Counted from the stretch's first letter, positions 8,470-23,163 are shown. The stretch: DNA of 23,163 nucleotides from Desulfobacterales bacterium (GCA_015228675.1 JADGCZ010000052.1:1-23163), one strand, 5' to 3'. The notes: generated by a model not told the origin, from the sequence alone. Translations and numbers: made by a program.

Positions 8470-9356
8470 GGGAATTTTGATTTCCATACACCCAAACCAT
8501 AGGCTATGCGAAATGGGATAAACATAAGGGATAACACACATTGATGCCATAATCGCCATGATCCAGACCAGAGACGTTTTATATCTATGGCAAATCGAGC
8601 TGTGGATATAACGAAAGGTGCAATTATTCCTAAATTTAAAATTCGGCTCCCCGGTAATGAAGGGTCTATTTTTCGGGAAAGCCATGCAACTTGTCCATAT
8701 CGAAATTCTCTCATCGGGATTTTTTTCCATGTTTGCCCATGATCATGGAAAACGTTTAATGTTGGGATGAATGCAATTTTACCTTGATGTGCAAGTTGTG
8801 AAGCTAAAAGCCGATCACCCGCATATCCGCATTCCTGAATAGATGGATATGACTTGATGGCTGATGAGCGTACAAACAGATTGCATCCCGGAGCATTTTT
8901 TAAAAATTTTATGCGATTATCTTGAAATTCACCGAAATTAGCTACTGCCAAACAAGTGCCAATCAGGTTGTCTTGATGTAAAACCGGCCCGGTAACAGCA
9001 ACAAGATAAGAATGAGATATCATCATGTGCCATCCTGTCCATAACCAATCCTGACAAGGACGACAATCATCATCAAGAAATGCTAAAATGTTTCCATGTG
9101 CTGCCTGACGTCCAAATTCTCTTGATTGATCCGAATTTCCATAGGATACAGCATAACATTTCCACGAATGCTTTTCTTGAGAGATGCACCAGTGTTGAAC
9201 AAATTGAAACACATTCTCTGGGCATTGATCAATAATAAAGATAAATTCTGCTTTCAAATTGTGACAATTCTGTTTGTTTAATGAATAAAACAGGTTTAAC
9301 AGAGAATTACTAGCAGAATGAACTGGTATAATAATCGTAATATCGATTAAAGACAT
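8466..9356 (-). CDS. Family 2 glycosyltransferase
   Basis: The N-terminus ITIIIPVHSASNSLLNLFYSL is GT-A type. There is a DxD-type motif FLDDDCRP, and the size fits GT2. Confidence 0.7.
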   Translation of the reverse strand: MSLIDITIIIPVHSASNSLLNLFYSLNKQNCHNLKAEFIFIIDQCPENVFQFVQHWCISQEKHSWKCYAVSYGNSDQSREFGRQAAHGNILAFLDDDCRPCQDWLWTGWHMMISHSYLVAVTGPVLHQDNLIGTCLAVANFGEFQDNRIKFLKNAPGCNLFVRSSAIKSYPSIQECGYAGDRLLASQLAHQGKIAFIPTLNVFHDHGQTWKKIPMREFRYGQVAWLSRKIDPSLPGSRILNLGIIAPFVISTARFAIDIKRLWSGSWRLWHQCVLSLMFIPFRIAYGLGVWKSKFP

Positions 9357-9513
9357 CTATTTATTTTGTTTCAATTAACTGTTTACTGTTTACATATGAT
9401 AATCTCTTGATGATCAATTATTATAATAATATCAAATAGAAACATTTCTAAGCAAGATAAAAAATAATTAATTTTTCTGAACGCTGAACAATTAACAATT
9501 TATCAATGATCGA

Positions 9514-9542
9514 TTGACATTTAAAAATTTAGCATTTAAGGT
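9514..9542 (+). promoter_or_regulatory. Candidate sigma70-like promoter for the receiver/CheC-like/kinase operon
   Basis: TTGACA at 9514-9519, a 17-nt spacer, then TAAGGT (weak -10), about 65 nt upstream of the 9606 ATG in an AT-rich divergent intergenic region. Confidence 0.2.
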
Positions 9543-9605
9543 AAAAAAATTAAAAGAGACAGGATAGCTATAAGATAAAAGAAAAAAAATAACAGGTGAT
9601 CGTAT

Positions 9606-9965
9606 ATGGCTATAGTGATGATTGTGGATGATTCATGGTTAACAAGACGCGTATTAGCTAACATACTTAAATTAGATGGTTATCAAATCATTGAAGCCAA
9701 TGGGGGGATTCAAGCACTATCCCTTATACAACAAACGCCTCCTGATTGTATGCTTCTTGATCTTTTAATGCCAGATATGGACGGTTATGAAACATTAAAG
9801 CTCATTAAAGATAAGGGATATCATTTTCCAGTGATTATTTTAACTGCCGATATTCAGGATACAGCAAAAGAAAAATGTTTTCAATTAGGTGCTGCGGATT
9901 ACATCAACAAACCTGCCGATGAAAAGACCATTAGATCATTAGTTCATCGCTTCATCAATTCTTAA
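9606..9965 (+). CDS. Stand-alone CheY-like response-regulator receiver domain protein
   Basis: Acidic pocket IVDDS, phospho-acceptor context LLDLLMPDMDG, a T in ILTADIQ and a K in YINKP. It is 119 aa with no output domain. AGGTGA RBS. Confidence 0.85.
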   Translation: MAIVMIVDDSWLTRRVLANILKLDGYQIIEANGGIQALSLIQQTPPDCMLLDLLMPDMDGYETLKLIKDKGYHFPVIILTADIQDTAKEKCFQLGAADYINKPADEKTIRSLVHRFINS

Positions 9966-9982
9966 TTTTTGGAAATTAAATC

Positions 9983-10594
9983 ATGGAATTAACACGTATC
10001 CAGATGGACGCGCTTTCAGAGATCATTAATATCGGAGTAGGTAAAGGCGCAGCAGTATTAAATAAGATATTAAATTCACATATTCAATTACGGGTACCAT
10101 TAGTTAAGATTTTAGATTCTACTGAGTTAATCAATGAATTAAAAGAAATGGGTAACGACAAACTTTCATCAGTGAATTTAGGGTTTAAAGGCACATTGTA
10201 TGGCACAGCACAGTTAATTTTTTCATCTGAAAATGCGTCTGAACTCGTTGCTACGGTTACGGGTGAAGATATACATAATTTGTCTATGGATGATATTAGT
10301 TTTATGCGTTCAGGGACACTTTCTGAAATTGGTAATATTGTATTGAACAGTGTTATGGGAACATTTTCGAATATGCTGTCTTTGCCTCTTCATTTTGTTG
10401 TACCGGGTTATATTGAGGATTATGCTTCGAATCTTTATTTTAAAATGGTTGAAAAAAATACAGCAATCCTTCTTGCAAAAACACAATTTTCAGTTGAAAA
10501 ACTTTCAATTCATGGCGATATTGTGCTCTTGTTTGAAGTGCCATCTATGGATGTCCTAATTCATAGGATTGATCAATATTTTTCACAGGTTTAA
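9983..10594 (+). CDS. CheC/CheX-family CheY-P phosphatase-like protein
   Basis: The N-terminal MDALSEIINIGVGKGAAVLNKIL matches the CheC D-x3-E-x2-N motif plus the NIG(A)G..A consensus. A second degenerate copy is LSEIGNIVLNSVMG. The protein is ~200 aa and sits directly downstream of a CheY-like gene. Confidence 0.6.
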   Translation: MELTRIQMDALSEIINIGVGKGAAVLNKILNSHIQLRVPLVKILDSTELINELKEMGNDKLSSVNLGFKGTLYGTAQLIFSSENASELVATVTGEDIHNLSMDDISFMRSGTLSEIGNIVLNSVMGTFSNMLSLPLHFVVPGYIEDYASNLYFKMVEKNTAILLAKTQFSVEKLSIHGDIVLLFEVPSMDVLIHRIDQYFSQV

Positions 10595-10614
10595 GTTAAA
10601 ATAATATAATATTC

Positions 10615-11841
10615 ATGGACATTTTTAAATTAGCTTTGGAAAAATTCGATGTACTAAACCATACTCCTGTTGGTATGGTGGTTATCAACAGTGAATATCA
10701 AGTTCTGTTTTGGAACCAATGTATTGAATATTGGTCAAATAAACACAGTAATGAAATTCTTGGCACCTCCCTGTTATCACACTACTCTCATTTGAATACA
10801 GACCGATATCTAAGCCGAATAGAAACAATCTTTGAAGGCGGCCCACCCGTCTTATTTTCTACACATCTTCATCAGTATTTTATTCCATGTTTGCTTTCAA
10901 ATGGTCAATGGATGAATCAGAATACAACAATATCGGCGTTTCCTTCATTTGATGGAAATGGACATTACGCATTAATTGCAATTGAAAATGTAACTGAGCT
11001 CACCCAGCGCGTTTTTGAATACAGGCAAATGAGAGACAAAGCATTAAATGAAATCAAACAGCGCGAATTGGCAGAAAAAGAAAAAGAAAAAATTCAGGCT
11101 CAAATGTTACGTGCTCAAAAATTAGAAAGCCTTAGTGTTTTAACAAGAGGAATTGCACATGATTTCAACAACCAATTGATGGGGATTCTTGGCAATGCAT
11201 CAATATTAAAACAACTCGTCCCACAAGATTCAACTTTAATCAAATATGTGGATAAAATTCAGCAAGCTACATTAAAATCAGCCGATTTAACCAAGCAGCT
11301 TATAGACTATACTGGCAAATCTAAAATCATTGCCAATTTTCTTAATTTTAATCAGGTACTTAAAGAATTAAAACCGATCATTGATTCAACGGTATCACCT
11401 CATATTATCGTGAATTATGAATTAGAAAAAGAGTTACCTGATGTCAAAGCAGATACCGCGCAAATTGAAAAAGTCATTATGCACCTTGTGACCAATGCAG
11501 ATGAAGCCATAGGCAATCAGTCCGGACTAATTACCATCCGAACCCATGCAAAACATTTTTCAAAAGAAGAATTGTTTAATGCTCACATTGAAATGAAACT
11601 CCAAGAAGGATTTTTTTCGTATTTTGAAGTTCAGGATACTGGACATGGTATGGACGATAATACGATGTTAAAAATTTTTGATCCTTTTTTCTCCACACGA
11701 TTTATTGGCAGAGGGCTTGGATTAACAATGGTTCTTGGAATAGTGCAAGGACATCGCGGAACTATTTTAATCGAAAGCACTCCTCAAAAAGGATCGTGTT
11801 TTCGAGTATTATTGCCTTCACAGGTCAAAAAACCAGCTTAA
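10615..11841 (+). CDS. PAS-domain sensor histidine kinase (PAS-HisKA-HATPase_c), cytoplasmic
   Basis: An N-terminal PAS-like region is followed by a coiled-coil and the H-box LTRGIAHDFNNQLMGILGNASIL. The N-box is HLVTNADEAI, the G1 box is VQDTGHGMD and the G2 box is GRGLGLTMV. There are no TM segments. Confidence 0.85.
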   Translation: MDIFKLALEKFDVLNHTPVGMVVINSEYQVLFWNQCIEYWSNKHSNEILGTSLLSHYSHLNTDRYLSRIETIFEGGPPVLFSTHLHQYFIPCLLSNGQWMNQNTTISAFPSFDGNGHYALIAIENVTELTQRVFEYRQMRDKALNEIKQRELAEKEKEKIQAQMLRAQKLESLSVLTRGIAHDFNNQLMGILGNASILKQLVPQDSTLIKYVDKIQQATLKSADLTKQLIDYTGKSKIIANFLNFNQVLKELKPIIDSTVSPHIIVNYELEKELPDVKADTAQIEKVIMHLVTNADEAIGNQSGLITIRTHAKHFSKEELFNAHIEMKLQEGFFSYFEVQDTGHGMDDNTMLKIFDPFFSTRFIGRGLGLTMVLGIVQGHRGTILIESTPQKGSCFRVLLPSQVKKPA

Positions 11842-11851
11842 TCCATTTTGG

Positions 11852-13927
11852 TCATTTCTGATCAGCTATATATTCCGATAGAATGGATTGTAAGATAAAA
11901 AATTGATGTTCAAGTTCAAGAATAAGGTGGGGCATCAGCGTTTGTTCTTTTTTATGCGCGAATGATTCTAATCGGTCTGCTGCTTTTTGCATTGATTTTA
12001 GTGATAAATTGGCTGACGCACCTTTAATTGTATGTGCAAGCATTTCGATTCTATCTAACTCATTCGTTTGGCAAGCATCTTTAATCGATTTAATTCTATT
12101 GGGGATATCTGATAAGAAACGGTGTATGAGTTGTTTTATAAGTTCGGGGTTATTATTCGTTCGTTCCAACAATTCCTGATGATTAAAAAAAATGGGGGTA
12201 TCATTGATTTCAGTTTCAGATGGTTGTTTTTTTTCTAACTTCTCCGATTGATGTTCAGAGATCGTTGGATGGTTCAACGTTCTTAAAAAGAGTGCTTGTT
12301 CGACTGTCTGCCTTAAGTCATCAGCAGTAAAGGGTTTTGATAAGTAACCACTCATTCCAGCGTTTAAAAAACGCTCTTTATCACCATCTAACCCATATGC
12401 AGTCATGGCAATGATCGGAATATCTTGGGTATGAAGTTGGATTTCCTGATTTCTAATTTTTTTTGTAAGCTCTAATCCATCCATATCCGGCATCATAATA
12501 TCCATGAGAACTAAGTCATAGGGAATTGACTCAAGCATTTGAATTGCAATTTTTCCATTCGATGCAAAATCCACATTGTATTTCTCTTTTTCAAGTATTG
12601 CCTGTACAATCATTTGAGTTTCATATGTATCCTCTACAACGAGTATATGGGCTTGTAATCCAGAAGAAGACTTTGAACTGGGTTGTTTATGATGTTGCAC
12701 AACAGGTACCCTATTGATTTGGTCTGTAACAGGCTCTTTATGGGATTGCTTTTCAAATATCAACGAAAGCCAAACGGTTGTACCAACACCGTATTTACTT
12801 TTTACATGAATATTTCCTCCCATCATCTCTATTAAACGCTGACACGTAGCCAGTCCAATACCAAGCCCCGGATATTTTCGGGTTAAAGAAGTATCTGCGC
12901 GATAAAATAGCTGGAAGAGTTTCTGTAAATTCTCATCTGATATGCCAATCCCGGAATCAGAGATGGATATATTGAGTTTAATACAGTTATCATGAAGAGG
13001 ATTTGTGAACACATTCATCGTTATTTTACCCTGATGGGTAAATTTGATTGCATTATCCAATAATTGCTGGAGAATATTGAATAATTTACCTGAATCTCCG
13101 CAGAGCTGTAACTCCACGTTTTCTTTGATGTCACAAGTCAATTCTATGTTTTTTTTGTTGGATTTAGGTAAAAACTGCTTCATTAAATCGTCAATCAACA
13201 TCTGTAAATCAAAATTCGAATATTCTACAAGTAAGTCTCCTGATTCAATTCGTGTAAAATTAATGATATCATTGATCAGTTTTAATAATTCATTGGCACT
13301 GTTGTTTAGAATCGTTGTATATTTTATTTGTGTTTCATTGAGTCTTGTTTCCTGTAACAGGCTTGCAATTCCAATAATACCATTCATCGGTGTTCTGAGT
13401 TCATGGCTTATCGTTGCCAGAAAATCTCTTTTTGCCAAATTGGCAATATTGGCAACTTGTTTGGCTTGGATCAATTCAACGTGTTGTCTTTCAGTAATAA
13501 AGGTTAGTTCTATCTGTTTTTTGATTAAATCATTCTTGGTTCTTTTTAATTCAGAGATTAAGTTAACGATTCGTGTTGCGGCTTTTAATCGATAATGCAA
13601 GGTTTCAAAATCAACCGGCTTGATTAGATAATCATCTGCACCAATTTGCATACCTTTTGCTATGGATTCAGACGAATTCGCTATGGTTAAAATAATAATG
13701 TAGGTATAAACGCCAATTTCATTATTTCGGATATGTTGACATAGAGAAAAACCATCCAACTCAGGCATTAAAATATCTGTGATAACGATGCTTGTTTTAT
13801 GATTCTGCCATAGTTCCCATGCTTCCTTCCCATTGTTGGCTTTGAGTACTTCAAAGCCAAGCGTTTCGGAAAAATTATCTAAAACATCCAACGTAATGGG
13901 ATCATCATCAACAATTAATATTTTCAT
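11852..13927 (-). CDS. Hybrid sensor histidine kinase: REC - HisKA - HATPase_c - REC - Hpt
   Basis: The N-terminal receiver is MKILIVDDDPITLD...ITDILMPELDG...LIKP. The H-box is ISHELRTPMNGIIG. The ATPase boxes are LLDNAIKFT, DSGIGI and GLGIGLATCQ. The second receiver is HILVVEDTYE...LMDIMMPDMDG...LSKP. The C-terminal Hpt domain contains LAHTIKGASANLSL. AAGGA RBS. Confidence 0.85.
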   Translation of the reverse strand: MKILIVDDDPITLDVLDNFSETLGFEVLKANNGKEAWELWQNHKTSIVITDILMPELDGFSLCQHIRNNEIGVYTYIIILTIANSSESIAKGMQIGADDYLIKPVDFETLHYRLKAATRIVNLISELKRTKNDLIKKQIELTFITERQHVELIQAKQVANIANLAKRDFLATISHELRTPMNGIIGIASLLQETRLNETQIKYTTILNNSANELLKLINDIINFTRIESGDLLVEYSNFDLQMLIDDLMKQFLPKSNKKNIELTCDIKENVELQLCGDSGKLFNILQQLLDNAIKFTHQGKITMNVFTNPLHDNCIKLNISISDSGIGISDENLQKLFQLFYRADTSLTRKYPGLGIGLATCQRLIEMMGGNIHVKSKYGVGTTVWLSLIFEKQSHKEPVTDQINRVPVVQHHKQPSSKSSSGLQAHILVVEDTYETQMIVQAILEKEKYNVDFASNGKIAIQMLESIPYDLVLMDIMMPDMDGLELTKKIRNQEIQLHTQDIPIIAMTAYGLDGDKERFLNAGMSGYLSKPFTADDLRQTVEQALFLRTLNHPTISEHQSEKLEKKQPSETEINDTPIFFNHQELLERTNNNPELIKQLIHRFLSDIPNRIKSIKDACQTNELDRIEMLAHTIKGASANLSLKSMQKAADRLESFAHKKEQTLMPHLILELEHQFFILQSILSEYIADQK

Positions 13928-13966: not shown

Positions 13967-14785
13967 TTATTCTTTAGTAGGTATCGGAGTAGGCGTAGGT
14001 GATGGTGGTGATGATGGCGTAGGCGTAGGCGGTGTACTTGATATTTCAGATAGCAATCTATCGATGATTAAACTAAAATAATTGAGGTCTTGAGCACCTT
14101 GGACAACCACACCATTCACAATAAATACAGGCGTTCCTGTGAATTGAAGTTTATTAGCCTGAGCTTTTTCCTCTTCAATTTGTTTTTGAATGGCTTCAGA
14201 TTGCCGATCTGCATTAAATTGGACAAGATCAAGTCCTAATTGTTTTGCAAATTCTTCAAACATGGGTTCTTTAAGCATAGTTGAATTTTGAAACAGGATA
14301 TCATGATATTCCCAGAATTTTCCCTGTTTATGAGCTGCAAGGCTGGCCTGTGAAGCCATCATCGCTAATTGATGGGAACTCAATGGCAAGTTTTTAAACA
14401 CCAGTTTCACCTTGTCAGAATATTTTTGAAGAACAGAATGCATGGTAATCGCCCCTCTGGAACAATATGGGCATTGAAAATCAGTATATTCAATGATAGT
14501 AATAGGCGCATTGGCAGGCCCTTTAACCGGGTTATTGGGTCTCGGTTCATCAATAACTCTGTTTTTAAAACTCTCATCAATTTTCTGAATTAATTGTTTT
14601 TCACGCATTTGTTTAACATATTCATTTGCGGTTTTATAAATCAGTTCAGGATTGTCTTTGATGACTTGAATAATGAACTCCTTTAAGGCTTTTTCATCCA
14701 TTGATATTTCAGTTGCATAAATCATGTTCTGAGAAAACAAAAACATGATGATCCATAGAGCAAAAAACAAAGTTACGCGTTTCAT
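13967..14785 (-). CDS. DsbA-family periplasmic thiol:disulfide oxidoreductase with a C-terminal Pro/Thr-rich tail
   Basis: The start is taken at the second Met (MKRVTLFFALWIIMFLFSQNMIYA signal peptide), which has AGGAGA 9 nt upstream; the ORF opens at 14806. CxxC active site FQCPYCSRG. The C-terminus is SSTPPTPTPSSPPSPTPTPIPTKE. Confidence 0.75.
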   Translation of the reverse strand: MKRVTLFFALWIIMFLFSQNMIYATEISMDEKALKEFIIQVIKDNPELIYKTANEYVKQMREKQLIQKIDESFKNRVIDEPRPNNPVKGPANAPITIIEYTDFQCPYCSRGAITMHSVLQKYSDKVKLVFKNLPLSSHQLAMMASQASLAAHKQGKFWEYHDILFQNSTMLKEPMFEEFAKQLGLDLVQFNADRQSEAIQKQIEEEKAQANKLQFTGTPVFIVNGVVVQGAQDLNYFSLIIDRLLSEISSTPPTPTPSSPPSPTPTPIPTKE

Positions 14786-14890
14786 TAAACTATTTCTCCT
14801 CTTCATTTAAAAAATTTTGAATTGATGAATTTCAAGAATTAATCTTTTATGCCTTCATTTGTCTTTATGTCAAGCAATTATCTAAGTATT

Positions 14891-14920
14891 TTTGTAAAAG
14901 CAGGCAGGTAAAAGGCCTGC
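14891..14920 (-). terminator. Rho-independent terminator downstream of the YiaAB-like gene on the minus strand
   Basis: On the minus strand: GCAGGC-CTTTTACCT-GCCTGC followed by TTTTACAAAAATAC. Confidence 0.4.
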
Positions 14921-14954
14921 ATCTCCAAAATTCCGCTTATAGCCGAACGGCCGA

Positions 14955-15236
14955 TTATGAAATGTCCTGATCATATTCTTTAAGTATTTTTTCAGTTTTT
15001 GCTGAGCTTATTTTTTTAATCAGTGTTTGAGCTTCATGTTCATCTCTAAGTGTTTTGGAAAGCGTTATGGATGAGCCAATTAAAAAAATCATACCCATTG
15101 TCATATAGCCTTTAACCCAAAAATCTGTTGGTAAAAAGTAAATGCCGCATAGCATCGCCATCACCGATGCAACAAATGAGAGCTTTACAAATAATATCCA
15201 CGATGCAGAATCTCGTTGAATGCCATAGTTTTCCAT
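14955..15236 (-). CDS. Small two-TM membrane protein, YiaA/B two-helix-domain family
   Basis: SWILFVKLSFVASVMAML ... VKGYMTMGMIFLIGSSITLSKTLRDEHE parallels the YiaAB consensus W-TM...EKGYYF..L.LGLF.A.S.QKTVRD. The start is placed at MENYG (AAGGAG 6 nt upstream). The ORF formally extends to 15278, but those extra 14 codons lie inside the palindromic repeat. Confidence 0.5.
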   Translation of the reverse strand: MENYGIQRDSASWILFVKLSFVASVMAMLCGIYFLPTDFWVKGYMTMGMIFLIGSSITLSKTLRDEHEAQTLIKKISSAKTEKILKEYDQDIS

Positions 15237-15261
15237 GTCTATCTCCTTTTTAGGTATCATT

Positions 15262-15400
15262 TTTTTGGCATTGATCATCGTTTCTGCCAGACATTATTCG
15301 TGCCGTGACAGAATTGTAGGGGCGAACCTTGTGTTCGCCCTCCAAAAGGGCGATGACAAGCATCGCCCCTACATTGTGGCCGAAACGAAGATCAATGCCA
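15262..15400. repeat. MITE-like palindromic element, intact copy: imperfect ~20-bp terminal inverted repeats flanking a double-hairpin core
   Basis: The TIRs are GGCATTGATCATCGTTTC ... GAAACGAAGATCAATGCC. The core is TGTAGGGGCGAACCTTGTGTTCGCCCTCCAAAAGGGCGATGACAAGCATCGCCCCTACA. Hairpin 1 is GGCGAAC/GTTCGCC and hairpin 2 is GGGCGATG/CATCGCCC, enclosed by TGTAGGGG/CCCCTACA. The left ~80 bp recur at 21446-21528 with ~95% identity apart from a 12-bp indel. Confidence 0.65.
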
Positions 15401-15428
15401 TTTTTCTATTGGGTTGGTTACAATAAGT

Positions 15429-16100
15429 TTATGAATTCATCGCTTTTTTCATTTCAGCCAATTCCATTTCTACGCGATACTGTTCTTGCTCATGAGCGAT
15501 ATCCATATCCAGCGATTCGGTTTCATTTTCCAATTCATTTAAGGCCTCAATACGCATTTCCATTCCTTCAACCCGATCTTCCATGCGATTAAATTGATCG
15601 ATCAGGCTTGGAAGCGTTTCCAGTGGCATGGATGTAGTATTCAATTGTTCACATGCCATAACTGCCCGCTGACGTGCAACAATAATTTTTTGACGATGCT
15701 TGAGTTGAATCATCTGATTCTGAATTTTCTTTAAGCGTTCCTTTAAGTTATCGCTATTTTTTTTAGCATGTTCCCATGCGATTTCAAGCTTTTCCACAAG
15801 TTGTTGATGCTCATTTTTTCGTAACAATGATTTTCGTGCAAGTTCTTCTTTACCTAAATGAAGCATTTCTTCAGCTTTTTTCTTATAATTACCACATAAT
15901 AGTTGATGCTGATTCAACTCACGTTCAATTCTTTTTTCAGCAGCTATCGCATTAACCACATCTGATTTGGTTTTTACTAAAGCGCATTCCATGTCTTGAA
16001 TAAGCATACTTGAAATGGATTCAGGGTCTTCTATACGTTCAATAGACTGGTTAAGTTTGGCTTTAAATACATACTGTAAACGGTGCATAAAACTTGTCAT
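15429..16100 (-). CDS. pspA: PspA/IM30 (phage-shock protein A / Vipp1) family protein
   Basis: The N-terminus RLQYVFKAKLNQSIERIEDPESISSMLIQDMECALVKTKSDVVNAIAAEKRIERELNQ parallels E. coli PspA [52 protein letters not shown]. It is all-helical coiled coil, 223 aa. AAGGAG RBS. Confidence 0.8.
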   Translation of the reverse strand: MTSFMHRLQYVFKAKLNQSIERIEDPESISSMLIQDMECALVKTKSDVVNAIAAEKRIERELNQHQLLCGNYKKKAEEMLHLGKEELARKSLLRKNEHQQLVEKLEIAWEHAKKNSDNLKERLKKIQNQMIQLKHRQKIIVARQRAVMACEQLNTTSMPLETLPSLIDQFNRMEDRVEGMEMRIEALNELENETESLDMDIAHEQEQYRVEMELAEMKKAMNS

Positions 16101-19438: not shown

Positions 19439-21094
19439 TTAACTTGTAGATTCAGCTTCAAAAACAGCATTTATAATTTGTTTTGCCTCTTCTTGAATTC
19501 GAGTGAGATGCGATTTGTCTTTAAAACTTTCTGTATAAATTTTATAAACATCTTCAGTTCCAGATGGCCTTGCTGCAAACCAGCCATTTTCTGTAATCAC
19601 CTTTAATCCGCCAATTGAAGCATTATTGCCTTGTGCGTTGGTTATTTTTGCAATAATAGGATCGCCGGCCAATACCCCGCTTTGAATTTGATCAGGAGAT
19701 AATTTTTGAAGCAGTGCTTTTTGTTTAGCATTTGCAGGTGCATCAATCCGCTCATAGATTGGGTCACCGAATTGCTGAGTCAGGTGTTTGTAATGAATAC
19801 CAGGGTCTCTTCCGGTTTTTGCTGTAATTTCAGCCGCAAGTAAATTCATAATAATACCATCTTTATCAGTTGTCCACACCGTTCCATCTTTGCGTAAAAA
19901 TGAAGCACCAGCACTTTCTTCACCGCCAAAACCATAAGCGCTTGAAAGCAAACCATCGACAAACCATTTGAATCCAACAGGAACTTCACATAATTTTCGG
20001 TCTAAATACTGAGCAACACGATCAATCATAGCGCTTGAAACCAATGTTTTACCAATAGCTGCACTTTTAGGCCATTGATTTCGATGTTGAAACAGATAAA
20101 AAATCGCCACAGATAGATAATGATTTGGGTTTAACAAGCCGACACTTGGAGTAACAATTCCATGACGATCTACATCAGGATCATTCCCAAAGGCAATGTC
20201 GAATTGGTCTTTTAAACTAATTAACCCTGCCATTGCATAAGACGAAGAGCAATCCATACGAATTTTTCCATCTTTATCCACTGTCATAAAACCAAATGTT
20301 GGGTCGATGATCGTATTTACAATTTGAAGGTTCAGCTTATATGTATCAGCAATACGGGACCAAAATTCAATAGACGCACCACCTAAAGGATCAACCCCCA
20401 TTTTAAGAGAAGATACCCGAATTGTTTCTATATCAATAACGTTAATTAAGTCATCTACATAAGGCTTTATGTAATCATATTCATGAGTTGTACTTGCCAT
20501 ACACGCTTTTTCAAATGGAATGCGTTTTACTTGGCTATTTTTATTAATTAGATATGTATTTGCTGTTTCCTGAATCCATAAAGTGGTTTTGGTATCTGCA
20601 GGCCCTCCATGCGGTGGATTGTACTTAAATCCACCATCTTCAGGAGGATTATGGGATGGTGTAATCACAATTCCATCAGCAAGACCAGAGGTTTTACCTT
20701 TATTAGCGCATAAAATTGCGTGAGAAATCACAGGAGTAGGCGTGTATTGATGATGTTGATGAATCACAACCTCTACTCCGTTCGCTGCAAGCACTTCCAA
20801 TGCTGTGGCATGACTTGGCTCAGACAATGCATGGGTATCCTTTCCCATAAACAAAGGGCCTGTAATATTTTGACTTTGCCTGTAATCGCATATGGCTTGA
20901 GTTATGGCTAAAATATGGGCTTCATTAAAATTCCATTTAAAAGATGACCCTCTGTGGCCTGAAGTGCCAAATTCAATTCTCTGGCTTAAATCATCAGTAT
21001 CTATCTGTTTAAGAAAATAAGAACTGACCAGTTGCGGAATATTAACAAGCAACGAACGCGGTGCAGGTTTACCTGCAAGTTTATGCACTGCCAT
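19439..21094 (-). CDS. pgm: Phosphoglucomutase, alpha-D-glucose phosphate-specific
   Basis: GTSGHRG near the N-terminus, active-site serine loop [14 protein letters not shown], Mg loop and sugar-binding GGEESAG. 551 aa, the typical Pgm size. Strong AAGGAGG RBS. Confidence 0.9.
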
Positions 21095-21321
21095 ACTTAA
21101 GCCTCCTTAAAAAATTAATGTCTATTTATTGCTTTTTGTATTTTATTGACAATATCTTCAAGATGATACACATCTGCTTTTAATAATGATGCTGTTTGAG
21201 TGAGGTAAAACAAAAAATTAGGCTATACTAAAGCTAATATTTTTTCAAGATCATTATTACTTTGTAAATGAACATATTTTTCAACATGATTAGGGTGTGC
21301 AGATGATGACAGATGCTTCAT

Positions 21322-21462
21322 CTACCGCTTAGGCGGCAACGCTTCTTTAACTACCGCACCATCTTTTTCGCTTAACATCAGCAAAGCAAACTCAGCTACA
21401 GTGTCCAGTTCATCCGTACTTAAACTCGCATAATCAAACGTTCCATTTTTAGCCTTGATCAT
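21322..21462 (-). CDS. Possible 46-aa small ORF whose ATG lies inside the palindromic-repeat TIR
   Basis: MIKAKNGTFDYASLSTDELDTVAEFALLMLSEKDGAVVKEALPPKR. It is below the threshold of the ORF track. The first ~4 codons come from the TTGATCAT repeat end, exactly as for the 15278 start of the YiaAB-like ORF. Confidence 0.15.
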   Translation of the reverse strand: MIKAKNGTFDYASLSTDELDTVAEFALLMLSEKDGAVVKEALPPKR

Positions 21463-21528
21463 CGTTTCGGCCAGACGTGACAGAATTGTAGGGGCGAACC
21501 TTGTGTTCGCCCTCCAAAAGGGCGATGA
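21446..21528. repeat. Left part of a second copy of the MITE-like palindromic element, truncated by group II intron insertion
   Basis: CCTTGATCATCGTTTCGGCCAGACGTGACAGAATTGTAGGGGCGAACCTTGTGTTCGCCCTCCAAAAGGGCGATGA, then the intron GTGCG. The intact copy continues ...GGGCGATGACAAGCATCGCCCCTACA. The break is inside the 5' arm of hairpin 2, 17 nt after hairpin 1. Confidence 0.65.
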
Positions 21529-23163
21529 GTGCGCATGGGAGGGCGATTAATCAGCATGGTGAAAGTCCGTGTCATGGTAAACCACAAACCATGTAGCTGA
21601 AAGTAACTGCGTCGCAGTGATGCGGGGTGGAGAGCAACTGGAAGCGAAGAGACAGTCCGTAGGATAACGAACCTGATTCGGCGTGGTGTTAGCGGCGAGC
21701 CTGCTCATTCATGGCGAAGCCTGAAACTCATTTACCCCGTTGTCGTGGTGCCTGAAACGAGGGTAAAGCACATTGTGTGGTTGGGGACGGAATGTCAGGA
21801 AGATTAAGCGAGATAACCATGGAGACCTGCACATTTAGGTAAGATGTGCAGGAGTCAGAGCCTTCATAGTACCGAACATGATAAGATCATGTAGATGCAT
21901 GAATAGCAAACTCATGCTGAGGGAAGGGAGGTAGGAAAGTTGATACAGGAGGTACAAAGAGATGTTGCTTAAAAAGGAAGCAGTTTCGTCAGTGCAGGAA
22001 AATGCTAAACAAGGAATAGAAACAGAGAAACCATCGAGATGGGGCTTTGTAGAAGCATCGATTTGGACTGAAAGTATGTTGGCGGCTCTGAAAAATGGAG
22101 TTAAAGGAGGCAAATGGTTTAGCTTGATAGACAAGGTATATAGACCACAGACCTTAAACGTAGCTTGGCATCAAGTGGAGGCGAACAAAGGAGCTTCAGG
22201 AGTAGATGGAGTGAGTATCCACTTGTTTAAATCCAAGGAAGAAGAGTATCTCAAAGAATTATCCCAATCACTTCAGGCAGGTACATATAAACCCGAAGCA
22301 ATAAGACGGGTTTATATTCCGAAAGGAGATGGAAAAGTACGCCCATTAGGAATACCAGCGGTAAAGGATCGGATAGTTCAGACGGCAATCAAAATGGTTA
22401 TCGAACCCATATTTGAAAATGAATTTTTGCCAATGAGTTATGGGTTTAGACCAGGTCGAGGATGTAAAGATGCATTAAGAGAAGTAGATCATTTGGTGAA
22501 GAGTGGTTTACACCTGTTATGTGGATGCAGATTTGAAAAGCTATTTTGACAGTATCCCGCATACGAAGTTAATGGAAAAGGTAGAGGAAAAGATTAGTGA
22601 TGGAAGATTATTAGGACTGATCGAAAGTTTTCTAAAACAAGAGATTATGGAGGAATGTAAATGTTGGATACCACCAGCCGGTACGCCTCAAGGAGCAGTG
22701 CTAAGTCCTTTACTTGCTAATCTTTATTTGGATCCATTAGATAAGGTGATAACAGGCTCTGGCTATCGAATGGTACGTTATGCGGATGATTTTGTGATAT
22801 TAAGTAAAACACAAGAAGAAGCTAACGTGGCTCTAACCAAAGTAAAAGAGTGGGTGGTTGCACATGGATTGGAACTTCATCCCGATAAAACCCGAACTGG
22901 AAACTGTATATATGCAGGTGAAGGATTCGAATTTTTAGGCTATCGATTCGAGCAAGGAAGACGTCATGTACGTTGCAAGAGTATGAAAGCGCTAAAAGAC
23001 AAAGTGAGGGAGAAAACGAAAAGGACATGCGGACAGAGTATCAGCAGAGTAATCGAAACGCTGAATCCGACTCTTAGAGGTTGGTTTGAATACTTTAAAC
23101 ATGCACATAAAACAACATTCCCGACAATAGATGGTTTTGTTCGTAGAAGAATGAGAGCTATTC
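21529..23163 (+). mobile_element. Group II intron, 5' portion (compact domains I-III plus intron-encoded protein in domain IV); the 3' end lies beyond the window
   Basis: It begins GTGCGC, the GUGYG 5' consensus. About 433 nt of structured GC-richer RNA precede a reverse-transcriptase ORF at 21962. The RT carries VDADLKSYFDSIPH (RT block 3) and YADDFVIL (block 5, YADD), and the maturase-like region begins near the window end. The short 5' segment fits class C. Confidence 0.8.
21962..23163 (+). pseudogene. Group II intron-encoded reverse transcriptase/maturase, apparently interrupted by a +1 frameshift near 22505-22520
   Basis: Frame 2 reads ...RPGRGCKDALREVDHLVKSGLH and then hits a stop after LLCGCRFEKLF (22549). 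Frame 0, shifted by +1, reads YVDADLKSYFDSIPH...LSPLLANLYL...RYADDFVILSK...LHPDKTRTG... and continues to the window edge. Two frames are therefore needed for the conserved RT blocks. Confidence 0.7.

Follow-up and report, generated by a model that had tools for sequence, protein, structure and literature searches.

We analyzed a 23,163-bp contig of a metagenome-assembled genome (MAG) labelled Desulfobacterales bacterium (hereafter, the window, whose 23-kb limit confines all statements on gene content to this stretch and permits none on the rest of the genome) and found that positions 9606-11841 of the plus strand are a copy of a widespread conserved module, consisting of a stand-alone CheY-like receiver, a two-site CheC-type aspartyl-phosphate phosphatase and a PAS-led signalling protein, which in this case is a soluble histidine kinase. 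A hybrid histidine kinase gene lies tail to tail with this operon. The module is widespread and uncharacterised, and it is built around a known enzyme family. On balance, we consider it probable that this is a conserved three-gene operon in which the PAS kinase would phosphorylate the receiver and CheC would reset it, with the hybrid kinase as a possible second route.

The evidence for conservation comes from a search for proteins related to this CheC in species-representative genomes, one for each species; it produced 515 confirmed matches. The best 80 loci were fetched and, together with eight further loci from metagenome look-ups (L001-L008, of which L002/L003 and L004/L005 are duplicate pairs), gave 86 non-redundant loci, in which all open reading frames (ORFs) were mapped using hidden Markov models built from the window's own proteins and from the Che proteins of two loci. 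In all 86, CheC is either fused to a receiver or directly preceded on its strand by the gene of a stand-alone one, and the next gene is PAS-led in at least 81, the remainder being cut by contig ends or fragmented. This strict co-location extends across phyla: the triad was found in 63 Cyanobacteria, mostly Nostocales, 12 Nitrospirota/Thermodesulfovibrionia-like genomes (one of the 12 being an unclassified bacterium), 6 Desulfobacterota, and one each of Prolixibacteraceae (Bacteroidota), Spirochaetota and a Halobacteriota archaeal MAG. The window has the same arrangement, with receiver and CheC genes on one strand followed by a PAS protein of the FWNxCLExW...GGPPxIFSSQLH...IQHTTVT type, and the best matches of its proteins are their positional counterparts and orthologs: the receiver matches those upstream of CheC in other loci at 43-50% identity and 126-130 bits, against at most 80 bits for other receivers, CheC does so at 45-52%, and the match of the PAS kinase spans its full length at 32-35%. 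Judged by these scores, the window receiver is a member of a distinct orthologous group.

Receiver and CheC are occasionally fused into one protein (P0120, L020, L075 and L076), which points to a direct functional link. The association also holds when approached from the third gene: all four proteins picked by their PAS domain alone (L089-L092) have a receiver and CheC alongside, so that the linkage is reciprocal; in one of these loci (L090), the receiver-CheC pair is divergent from an operon of cheA and the PAS protein. An original prediction, made from the sequence of the window alone, had grouped the triad and the convergent hybrid kinase into one four-gene island, with synteny in relatives put forward as a test of it. 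For the receiver, CheC and the PAS kinase, synteny holds far beyond chance; for the hybrid kinase, it does not.

By Pfam score, motifs and predicted fold, the 203-amino-acid (aa) product of the middle gene is a genuine two-site CheC. It scores 27.9 bits against the CheC family (gathering score 22) and 24.7 against CheX, below the cut-off of 27, and the NCBIfam model CheC_Thtogales matches it over the full length (1.7e-20), with a score of 73.8 that stays under the equivalog cut-off of 250. The consensus of the CheC family, D/S-x3-E-x2-N-x22-P, which occurs in two copies in CheC, is exact at site 1 (D9-x3-E13-x2-N16-x22-P39), and at site 2 reads E115-x2-N118-x22-P141, with G111 replacing D/S at the first position. 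Across 30 aligned homologues (45-53% identity), the E, N and P residues of the two sites do not vary, which argues for selection on catalysis. The best solved relative by sequence is Thermotoga maritima CheC (5e-10), with which both active-site helices align. The AlphaFold model (pLDDT 84.6, pTM 0.84) predicts a CheC-like alpha/beta fold with internal pseudo-twofold symmetry, and the Foldseek matches comprise CheC structures 1xkr and 2f9z (TM 0.81-0.82; E 1.8e-16 for 1xkr), the H. marismortui CheC-like protein 3qta (TM 0.79), FliY 4hyn (0.75) and CheX structures (about 0.52-0.55). Dephosphorylation of the phosphorylated receiver by this protein is a putative activity, suggested by the conserved catalytic residues and the receiver-CheC fusions.

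Two other identities of the 203-aa protein were considered and rejected. A FliY/FliM motor switch protein is incompatible with its size, the lack of a FliN domain and a best fold match to CheC. CheX is incompatible with the Pfam score, the low TM values and the presence of two sites instead of one. In databases, the protein already bears the name "chemotaxis protein CheC".

The receiver matches Pfam Response_reg at 7e-30 and has the full set of expected residues (D8, D9, D52, T80 and K102), with Ala81 at the T+1 position and Tyr99 at the aromatic switch position. The A81-D82-I83-Q84 stretch, on the beta4-alpha4 face, is invariant in the receiver family. Having no output domain, this protein must act via protein contacts.

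The third protein matches Pfam PAS_4, HisKA and HATPase_c, with H182 and complete N, G1, F and G2 boxes. Alignment of the N-terminal PAS domains encoded by the third genes gave the consensus FWNxCLExWT, R..xIFxGGPPxIFSSQLH, IQHTTVT and YALFAxxDVTxLTxR; the window domain keeps W33, N34, W40, R68, G75, G76, P78, F81, H86 and T104, and its GGPPxIFSSQLH motif reads PPVLFSTHLH. The domain is modelled with a pLDDT of 94.8 as a generic PAS fold, to which known PAS, LOV and FixL domains are only generically similar in Foldseek (12-20% identity), and a PDB sequence search with it returned no match. The invariant H86 lies in a short helix (83-86) that follows the strand at 79-81, downstream of the long helix 63-73 and not inside it. 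Support for a LOV or heme-binding PAS was not found, the Foldseek matches being only generic, the NCRFL motif missing and H86 wrongly placed.

The family defined by this PAS domain is large and its members differ in what follows the domain. An exhaustive HMMER search with the window PAS domain (E<=1e-10) identified 654 cluster representatives, whereas a word-indexed protein search gave a single match; the domain is N-terminal in all 150 representatives listed, in proteins of 136 to 1,544 aa. Scanning 75 representatives revealed HATPase in 51, HisKA in 42, a receiver in 23, Hpt in 10, GGDEF in 9 and EAL in 1. Among the triad loci, PAS is followed by HisKA-HATPase in the window, L082, L010, L004 and L077, and by HisKA-HATPase-REC in Nostocales and Nitrospirota; most family members are such PAS-histidine kinase (HK)-REC hybrids. 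Other third genes encode PAS followed by HisKA-REC-GGDEF, without an ATPase domain (L012, 3009-4688; L081, 8578-10272), by HisKA alone (L063, 8596-9411, on a complete chromosome) or by PAS-GAF-GGDEF, with no DHp domain (L041, 4175-6109). These variants lacking an ATPase domain point to a cyclic di-GMP (c-di-GMP) output in some lineages.

Further signalling genes were observed in or near several triad loci. Upstream of the triad in L001 (2300-5634), genes for two CheX proteins, a receiver and a kinase that carries the PAS domain of this family lie in a cheR/cheB neighbourhood; in this locus, CheX-type as well as CheC-type phosphatases are paired with the PAS kinase family. In L089 (3125-5503), the triad is followed by a 187-aa receiver and then by an Hpt-REC-sigma54 activator-HTH protein, an Hpt-fused NtrC-type transcription factor that is a candidate for the transcriptional output of the module there. 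In the window itself, a 285-aa protein (3385-4242, plus strand) has an unrecognised N-terminal part and a FixL-type DHp domain (AVCHELNQP) with no ATPase domain. This DHp domain is 48% identical to the DHp-only tail of the triad third gene in the Desulfobacterales locus L011, and the protein may represent a stray member of the triad's network, with a role in phosphotransfer or as a phosphatase.

The layout of the window locus is given in Table 1. The receiver ATG is preceded at 8 nt by AGGTGA, and the three plus-strand genes are separated by 17 nt (receiver to CheC) and 20 nt (CheC to PAS kinase), a spacing that fits a single transcript; 9606-11841 is one operon. Its promoter would lie in the intergenic region shared with the divergent GT2 gene, in a window where a promoter and terminator scan gave counts at or below the shuffled background. 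The ends of the PAS kinase and hybrid kinase genes are 10 nt apart. No RNA elements, including riboswitches, and no tRNAs were found in the window. ORF calls, Pfam searches and a residue check confirmed the four genes where the original prediction had placed them, with the domains it had assigned and all catalytic residues present. Its grouping of the 203-aa protein with CheC/CheX/FliY passed the Pfam check, the protein being CheC-type with intact catalytic residues; its placing of the CheC gene between those of a single-domain receiver and a soluble PAS kinase was borne out, the three sharing an operon, and so was the convergent REC-HK-REC-Hpt architecture, on the evidence of Pfam, residues and tail-to-tail gene ends.

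Table 1. Features of the receiver-CheC-PAS kinase locus and its immediate neighbourhood in the window
Feature	Position	Strand	Size	Details
GT2 gene, divergent	8466-9356	-		Far side of the 249-bp intergenic region
Putative promoter and ribosome-binding site region of the three-gene operon	9357..9605	+	249 bp	AT-rich, divergent intergenic
Single-domain CheY-like receiver	9606..9965	+	119 aa	Phospho-acceptor D52
Two-site CheC-type aspartyl-phosphate phosphatase (by homology)	9983..10594	+	203 aa	PF04509
Soluble PAS histidine kinase	10615..11841	+	408 aa	PAS domain encoded by 10615-11049, then HisKA (H182), HATPase
Hybrid kinase, REC-HisKA-HATPase-REC-Hpt	11852..13927	-	691 aa	Tail to tail with the PAS kinase

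A sigma-70-like sequence (TTCACA-17-TATAAT, 11/12 matches to the consensus) was also observed at 10582-10610 on the plus strand, overlapping the end of cheC and the spacer to the PAS kinase gene. It is a possible internal promoter, in a window where promoter-like counts overall are not above the shuffled background.

The relationship of the triad to CheA differs among lineages. Pfam searches of all other large ORFs in the window found no CheA, CheW, methyl-accepting chemotaxis protein (MCP), CheB, CheR or CheD, in agreement with the original prediction that the first three are missing from the 23 kb. In contrast, CheA lies beside the triad in 61 of the 63 cyanobacterial loci and 4 of the 5 other Desulfobacterota loci. 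In the 61 cyanobacterial loci, it is divergent from a cheA-cheW-mcp-cheB-cheR operon (CheR having been confirmed separately) that has no CheY of its own, with a further receiver beyond cheR in one locus only, and in Nostocales the triad receiver is the obvious protein to serve as CheY in what is a complete, methylation-dependent Che pathway. An uncharacterised eight-gene Che-like locus of this kind is present in nearly every Nostocales genome sampled (L014, L017, L019-L088; for example, L030, 1135-8000). In L012, L063 and L081, a CheA with Hpt, dimerisation, HATPase and CheW-like domains is convergent with the third gene at a distance of 0-55 nt, and in L082, CheA lies just upstream; neither CheW nor MCP was found in the domain map of these four loci, or by Pfam in the flanking genes of L082. 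CheA, CheW and MCP genes in company with the receiver and phosphatase were found in Nostocales, CheA alone in L012, L063, L081, L082 and L090, and none of the three in the window. No CheA was detected within the fetched DNA (6-8 kb on each side where the contig allowed) in the 12 Nitrospirota-like loci, the archaeal locus, or L001, L008, L010, L089, L091 and L092. Finally, CheD was found neither among the window ORFs nor among the Pfam-annotated genes of the 13 related loci returned (L001-L008 and L089-L092, duplicates included), and the window CheC is not part of a CheC-CheD type pair.

Given the adjacency to CheA in most cyanobacterial and other Desulfobacterota loci, the term "non-chemotaxis", which the original prediction had applied to this system, is too strong at the level of the family. 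Because Nostocales lack flagella, it is better to speak of a Che-like pathway with an alternative output; within non-flagellar pathways of this kind, the triad is best understood as the branch that comprises CheY, phosphatase and sensor kinase. For the window, the description should be softened to a Che-derived module uncoupled from CheA, at least locally.

The place of the hybrid kinase is less clear. Pfam identifies HisKA, HATPase_c, two Response_reg domains and Hpt in this 691-aa protein, and the corresponding residues are present (D51, H175, N292, G1 at 324, G2 at 354, D476 and H632 in HTIKG), that is, it has the DHp histidine, receiver aspartate, Hpt histidine and N/G1/F/G2 set of a multi-step phosphorelay kinase. 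No close ortholog of it was found, the best non-self homologues being at most 38% identical, and a search for a conserved partner found none. The closest proteins of the same architecture, from Desulfamplus (32-34% identity), are encoded directly behind a plain sensor kinase, an order consistent with a kinase-to-hybrid cascade, and neither a receiver nor CheC lies in their vicinity. The receivers of the hybrid kinase show only generic similarity to the receivers of triad loci. A dsbA-like gene precedes that of the hybrid kinase in the same orientation, 39 nt away.

Two neighbourhoods of such hybrid kinases deserve description in their own right. Directly upstream of the window gene, on the minus strand (13967-16100), lie genes for PspA/IM30, a YiaAB two-helix membrane protein and a DsbA-like thioredoxin-fold protein, a run suggestive of a unit for envelope or thiol stress, to which the hybrid kinase may belong. 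In a Desulfamplus MAG (L093, 3035-6327), the closest relative of the same architecture is followed by PilJ-SpoIIE, DUF6272, SiaC and GGDEF genes, a set that we take to resemble SiaABCD.

On the other side, the hybrid kinase occupies the tail-to-tail slot that is taken by the convergent CheA in L012, L063 and L081, with a gap of 10 nt compared to 0-55 nt. In L001, L008 and L010, the triad is followed by a hybrid kinase with an N-terminal receiver (an L081 copy is upstream instead), and L001 has a REC-PAS-HK-REC-Hpt protein two genes downstream; in L004, L076 and L077, plain REC-HK genes come after the triad. Kinases with an Hpt domain, usually CheA, are frequent neighbours of the triad. The original prediction had the hybrid kinase supply an Hpt domain to the circuit; the CheA in the tail-to-tail slot and the Hpt domains in 10 of the 75 PAS representatives indirectly favour an Hpt donor, but the hybrid kinase itself is not conserved with the triad. 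We put the chance that it functionally belongs to the triad circuit somewhere between a clear minority and an even one.

Taken together, these observations suggest the following scheme. Upon a signal detected by its PAS domain, the PAS kinase would autophosphorylate on H182 and hand the phosphoryl group to D52 of the 119-aa receiver, which would signal by protein contact until CheC places E13/N16 or E115/N118 into the receiver active site and hydrolyses the acyl phosphate, such that the receiver signal would be short-lived, as in chemotaxis. The hybrid kinase might provide a second route, either feeding the circuit (from Hpt H632 to D52) or receiving from it (from the PAS kinase to its own N-terminal receiver); this step is the weakest of the model and, in our estimate, rather doubtful. 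Several points weigh against the scheme as a whole. The PAS kinase H-box, H-D-F-N-N, retains the E/D-x-x-T/N motif tied to kinase-intrinsic phosphatase activity, so that a separate phosphatase is not obviously required. The third genes of L012, L081 and L063 have no ATPase domain and that of L041 has no DHp, so that the PAS protein is not the receiver's kinase everywhere. Site 2 of CheC starts with Gly where CheC and FliY carry Asp or Ser. The hybrid kinase, not being conserved with the triad, may belong to the pspA-yiaAB-dsbA run. Moreover, the 80 scanned loci are the best-scoring of the 515 matches and more distant members may have other contexts, and the presumed phosphotransfer partners and phosphatase activity are deduced from homology and gene order only.

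Other explanations distribute the roles differently. The receiver and CheC might serve a CheA/CheW/MCP pathway encoded outside the contig, with the PAS kinase as a side input, as would be expected from the frequent position of the triad beside CheA, from the Nostocales che operon that has no CheY of its own and from the existing database label. However, Nostocales are non-flagellated, so that even there the pathway is not flagellar chemotaxis; CheA was not found in the fetched DNA of the Nitrospirota-like, archaeal and six other loci listed above, CheD was seen in none of the annotated loci, and the PAS protein is linked to the receiver and CheC as tightly as CheA is, or more so. We regard such an accessory role in chemotaxis as a tentative alternative, with a chance well below even. 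Somewhat less probable, in our view, is that the 119-aa receiver and CheC form a phosphate sink with a drain, siphoning phosphoryl groups from the PAS kinase and thereby sharpening and shortening its signalling, while the real output would be a receiver of the second tier (in the window, the N-terminal one of the hybrid kinase, as part of the same unlikely reading). Sink receivers are established in other Che systems, and this idea accommodates the lack of an output domain in the receiver, the prevalence of PAS-HK-REC hybrids in the family and the observation that a PAS kinase without a C-terminal receiver is usually followed by a receiver gene (L001, L004, L008, L010, L076, L077, L089 and L091). 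It leaves unexplained why the triad stays together in L041, where the third gene is a DHp-less GAF-GGDEF protein, and why the A81-D82-I83-Q84 face of the receiver, which suggests a specific partner, is so highly conserved.

The PAS domain might also be the target, and not a ligand sensor: the phosphorylated receiver, or a receiver-CheC complex, would dock on it and control the effector that follows, be it a kinase or a diguanylate cyclase, so that the third gene would be the direct output of a Che-like pathway, with its timing set by CheC, and the phosphodonor would be the neighbouring Hpt-bearing kinase, CheA in relatives and the hybrid kinase here. The PAS domain is indeed the sole constant part of the third gene, its linkage to receiver and CheC is reciprocal, Hpt-bearing kinases recur next door, and the transmitter is often swapped (HK, HK-REC, HK-REC-Hpt, DHp-REC-GGDEF, DHp only, GAF-GGDEF), some versions being unable to act as kinases. 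The conservation of the PAS domain is, however, accounted for just as well by a shared small-molecule signal that it would sense, and DHp is lacking altogether in one locus only (L041); we consider this whole proposal, including its choice of phosphodonor, distinctly improbable. A separate question concerns the hybrid kinase, which could be an unrelated neighbour, the last gene of the minus-strand pspA-yiaAB-dsbA run acting in an envelope or redox stress circuit. The 39-nt distance to the dsbA-like gene on the same strand, the lack of a conserved association with the triad and the merely generic similarity of its receivers to those of triad loci are in line with this possibility, whereas the tail-to-tail geometry matching the CheA slot of three relatives, the recurrence of Hpt domains in the PAS family, and the N-terminal-receiver hybrids and plain REC-HK genes found after the triad in six other loci argue for a connection; we judge the chance of an unrelated neighbour to be only slightly short of even.

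To our knowledge, flagellar chemotaxis (CheZ, CheC/X) and sporulation (Rap, Spo0E) are the only settings in which dedicated phosphatases of aspartyl phosphate are well understood. In the present module, an enzyme of the CheC type is firmly tied to a receiver and one specific PAS domain, with 515 matches among species-representative genomes, in hosts that include non-flagellated filamentous cyanobacteria, relatives of nitrite oxidisers, sulfate reducers and a methanogen-related archaeon, and with partner effectors ranging from histidine kinases to diguanylate cyclases. Understanding the module would show how the Che-type mechanism of fast signal termination is reused outside motility, would assign a function to the orphan che locus of Nostocales and would allow "chemotaxis protein CheC", a blanket label in databases, to be corrected. 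The window offers a natural experiment in which an Hpt-bearing hybrid kinase replaces CheA. Should docking on the PAS domain prove true, which we think improbable, CheY would gain a new class of targets, and chemosensory arrays a general adaptor to two-component and c-di-GMP signalling in non-flagellated bacteria and archaea.

Outside the signalling genes, two further features of the window were recorded. An 837-aa protein (5606-8119, plus strand) has a Major Vault Protein shoulder domain (PF11978, 3.5e-27) and a vault repeat (PF17795), with no NCBIfam match, placing a bacterial homologue of this protein, with a eukaryote-type shoulder domain, a few kb from the signalling genes. Near the end of the window, a truncated reverse-transcriptase ORF (21962-22549, plus strand; RVT_1, 1.6e-9) lies in a segment (21000-23163) of higher GC content (0.40-0.43) with strong positive GC skew, around which no group II intron or other RNA family was matched in Rfam.

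A limited literature search found no description of a receiver-CheC-PAS kinase operon, which is not proof of novelty. Non-chemotaxis roles of CheC and receiver-CheC fusions have reportedly been raised in general terms in a 2008 review on CheC-type phosphatases "and beyond" and in other work. One paper lists a "CheC-like" response-regulator type for Pseudomonas syringae. Among characterized proteins, the window phosphatase is most readily compared with CheC of T. maritima and Bacillus subtilis, with which it shares a size of about 200 aa, a monomeric pseudo-twofold fold (TM 0.81 to 1xkr), two helices bearing E-x2-N-x22-P and a gene beside that of a CheY-like receiver. It differs in being only 20% identical to T. 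maritima CheC, in scoring below the NCBIfam equivalog cut-off, in having Gly in place of Asp/Ser at the start of site 2, and in that no CheD appears in any annotated locus, the partner is always a PAS signalling protein and the window has no CheA, CheW or MCP. With CheX of Borrelia burgdorferi and Vibrio vulnificus, it is predicted to share the catalytic E-x2-N mechanism on the phosphorylated receiver, CheX acting on CheY via an E/N pair in a solved CheX-CheY complex (summarised in PMC12887009). Unlike the window protein, CheX is a dimer of about 150-aa chains with one site per chain; the window protein reaches TM values of only about 0.52-0.55 to it and falls below its Pfam cut-off.

At the level of the circuit, the Bacillus sporulation phosphorelay likewise features a multi-kinase His-Asp-His-Asp relay with a single-domain receiver, Spo0F, drained by a dedicated auxiliary phosphatase (PMC3035606), but its phosphatases have unrelated folds (TPR in Rap, Spo0E), its terminal output has been identified as Spo0A, and it lacks a PAS-linked operon. 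The 691-aa hybrid kinase has all the phospho-sites of the H1-D1-H2 layout of ArcB/BarA/TorS-type kinases, and its best NCBIfam similarities are to BarA, TorS and ArcB, far below every equivalog cut-off; unlike these kinases, it has an extra N-terminal receiver and no membrane or periplasmic sensor. In the Che3 system of Rhodospirillum centenum, as outlined in the abstract of PMC3868531, a PAS-containing kinase, CheS3, and not CheA3, phosphorylates the single-domain receiver CheY3, and CheA talks to the receiver of CheS3. That system is likewise a Che-like pathway with an alternative cellular function and a non-CheA sensor kinase within the cluster (PMC3868531). It differs from ours in having a CheA, where the window has a hybrid Hpt kinase instead, and no CheC-type phosphatase is among the components named in the abstracts of PMC3868531 and PMC4436063. 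As far as these abstracts describe it, the Che3 cascade, with its PAS kinase directed at a stand-alone CheY, appears to be the closest functional analogue documented for the module.

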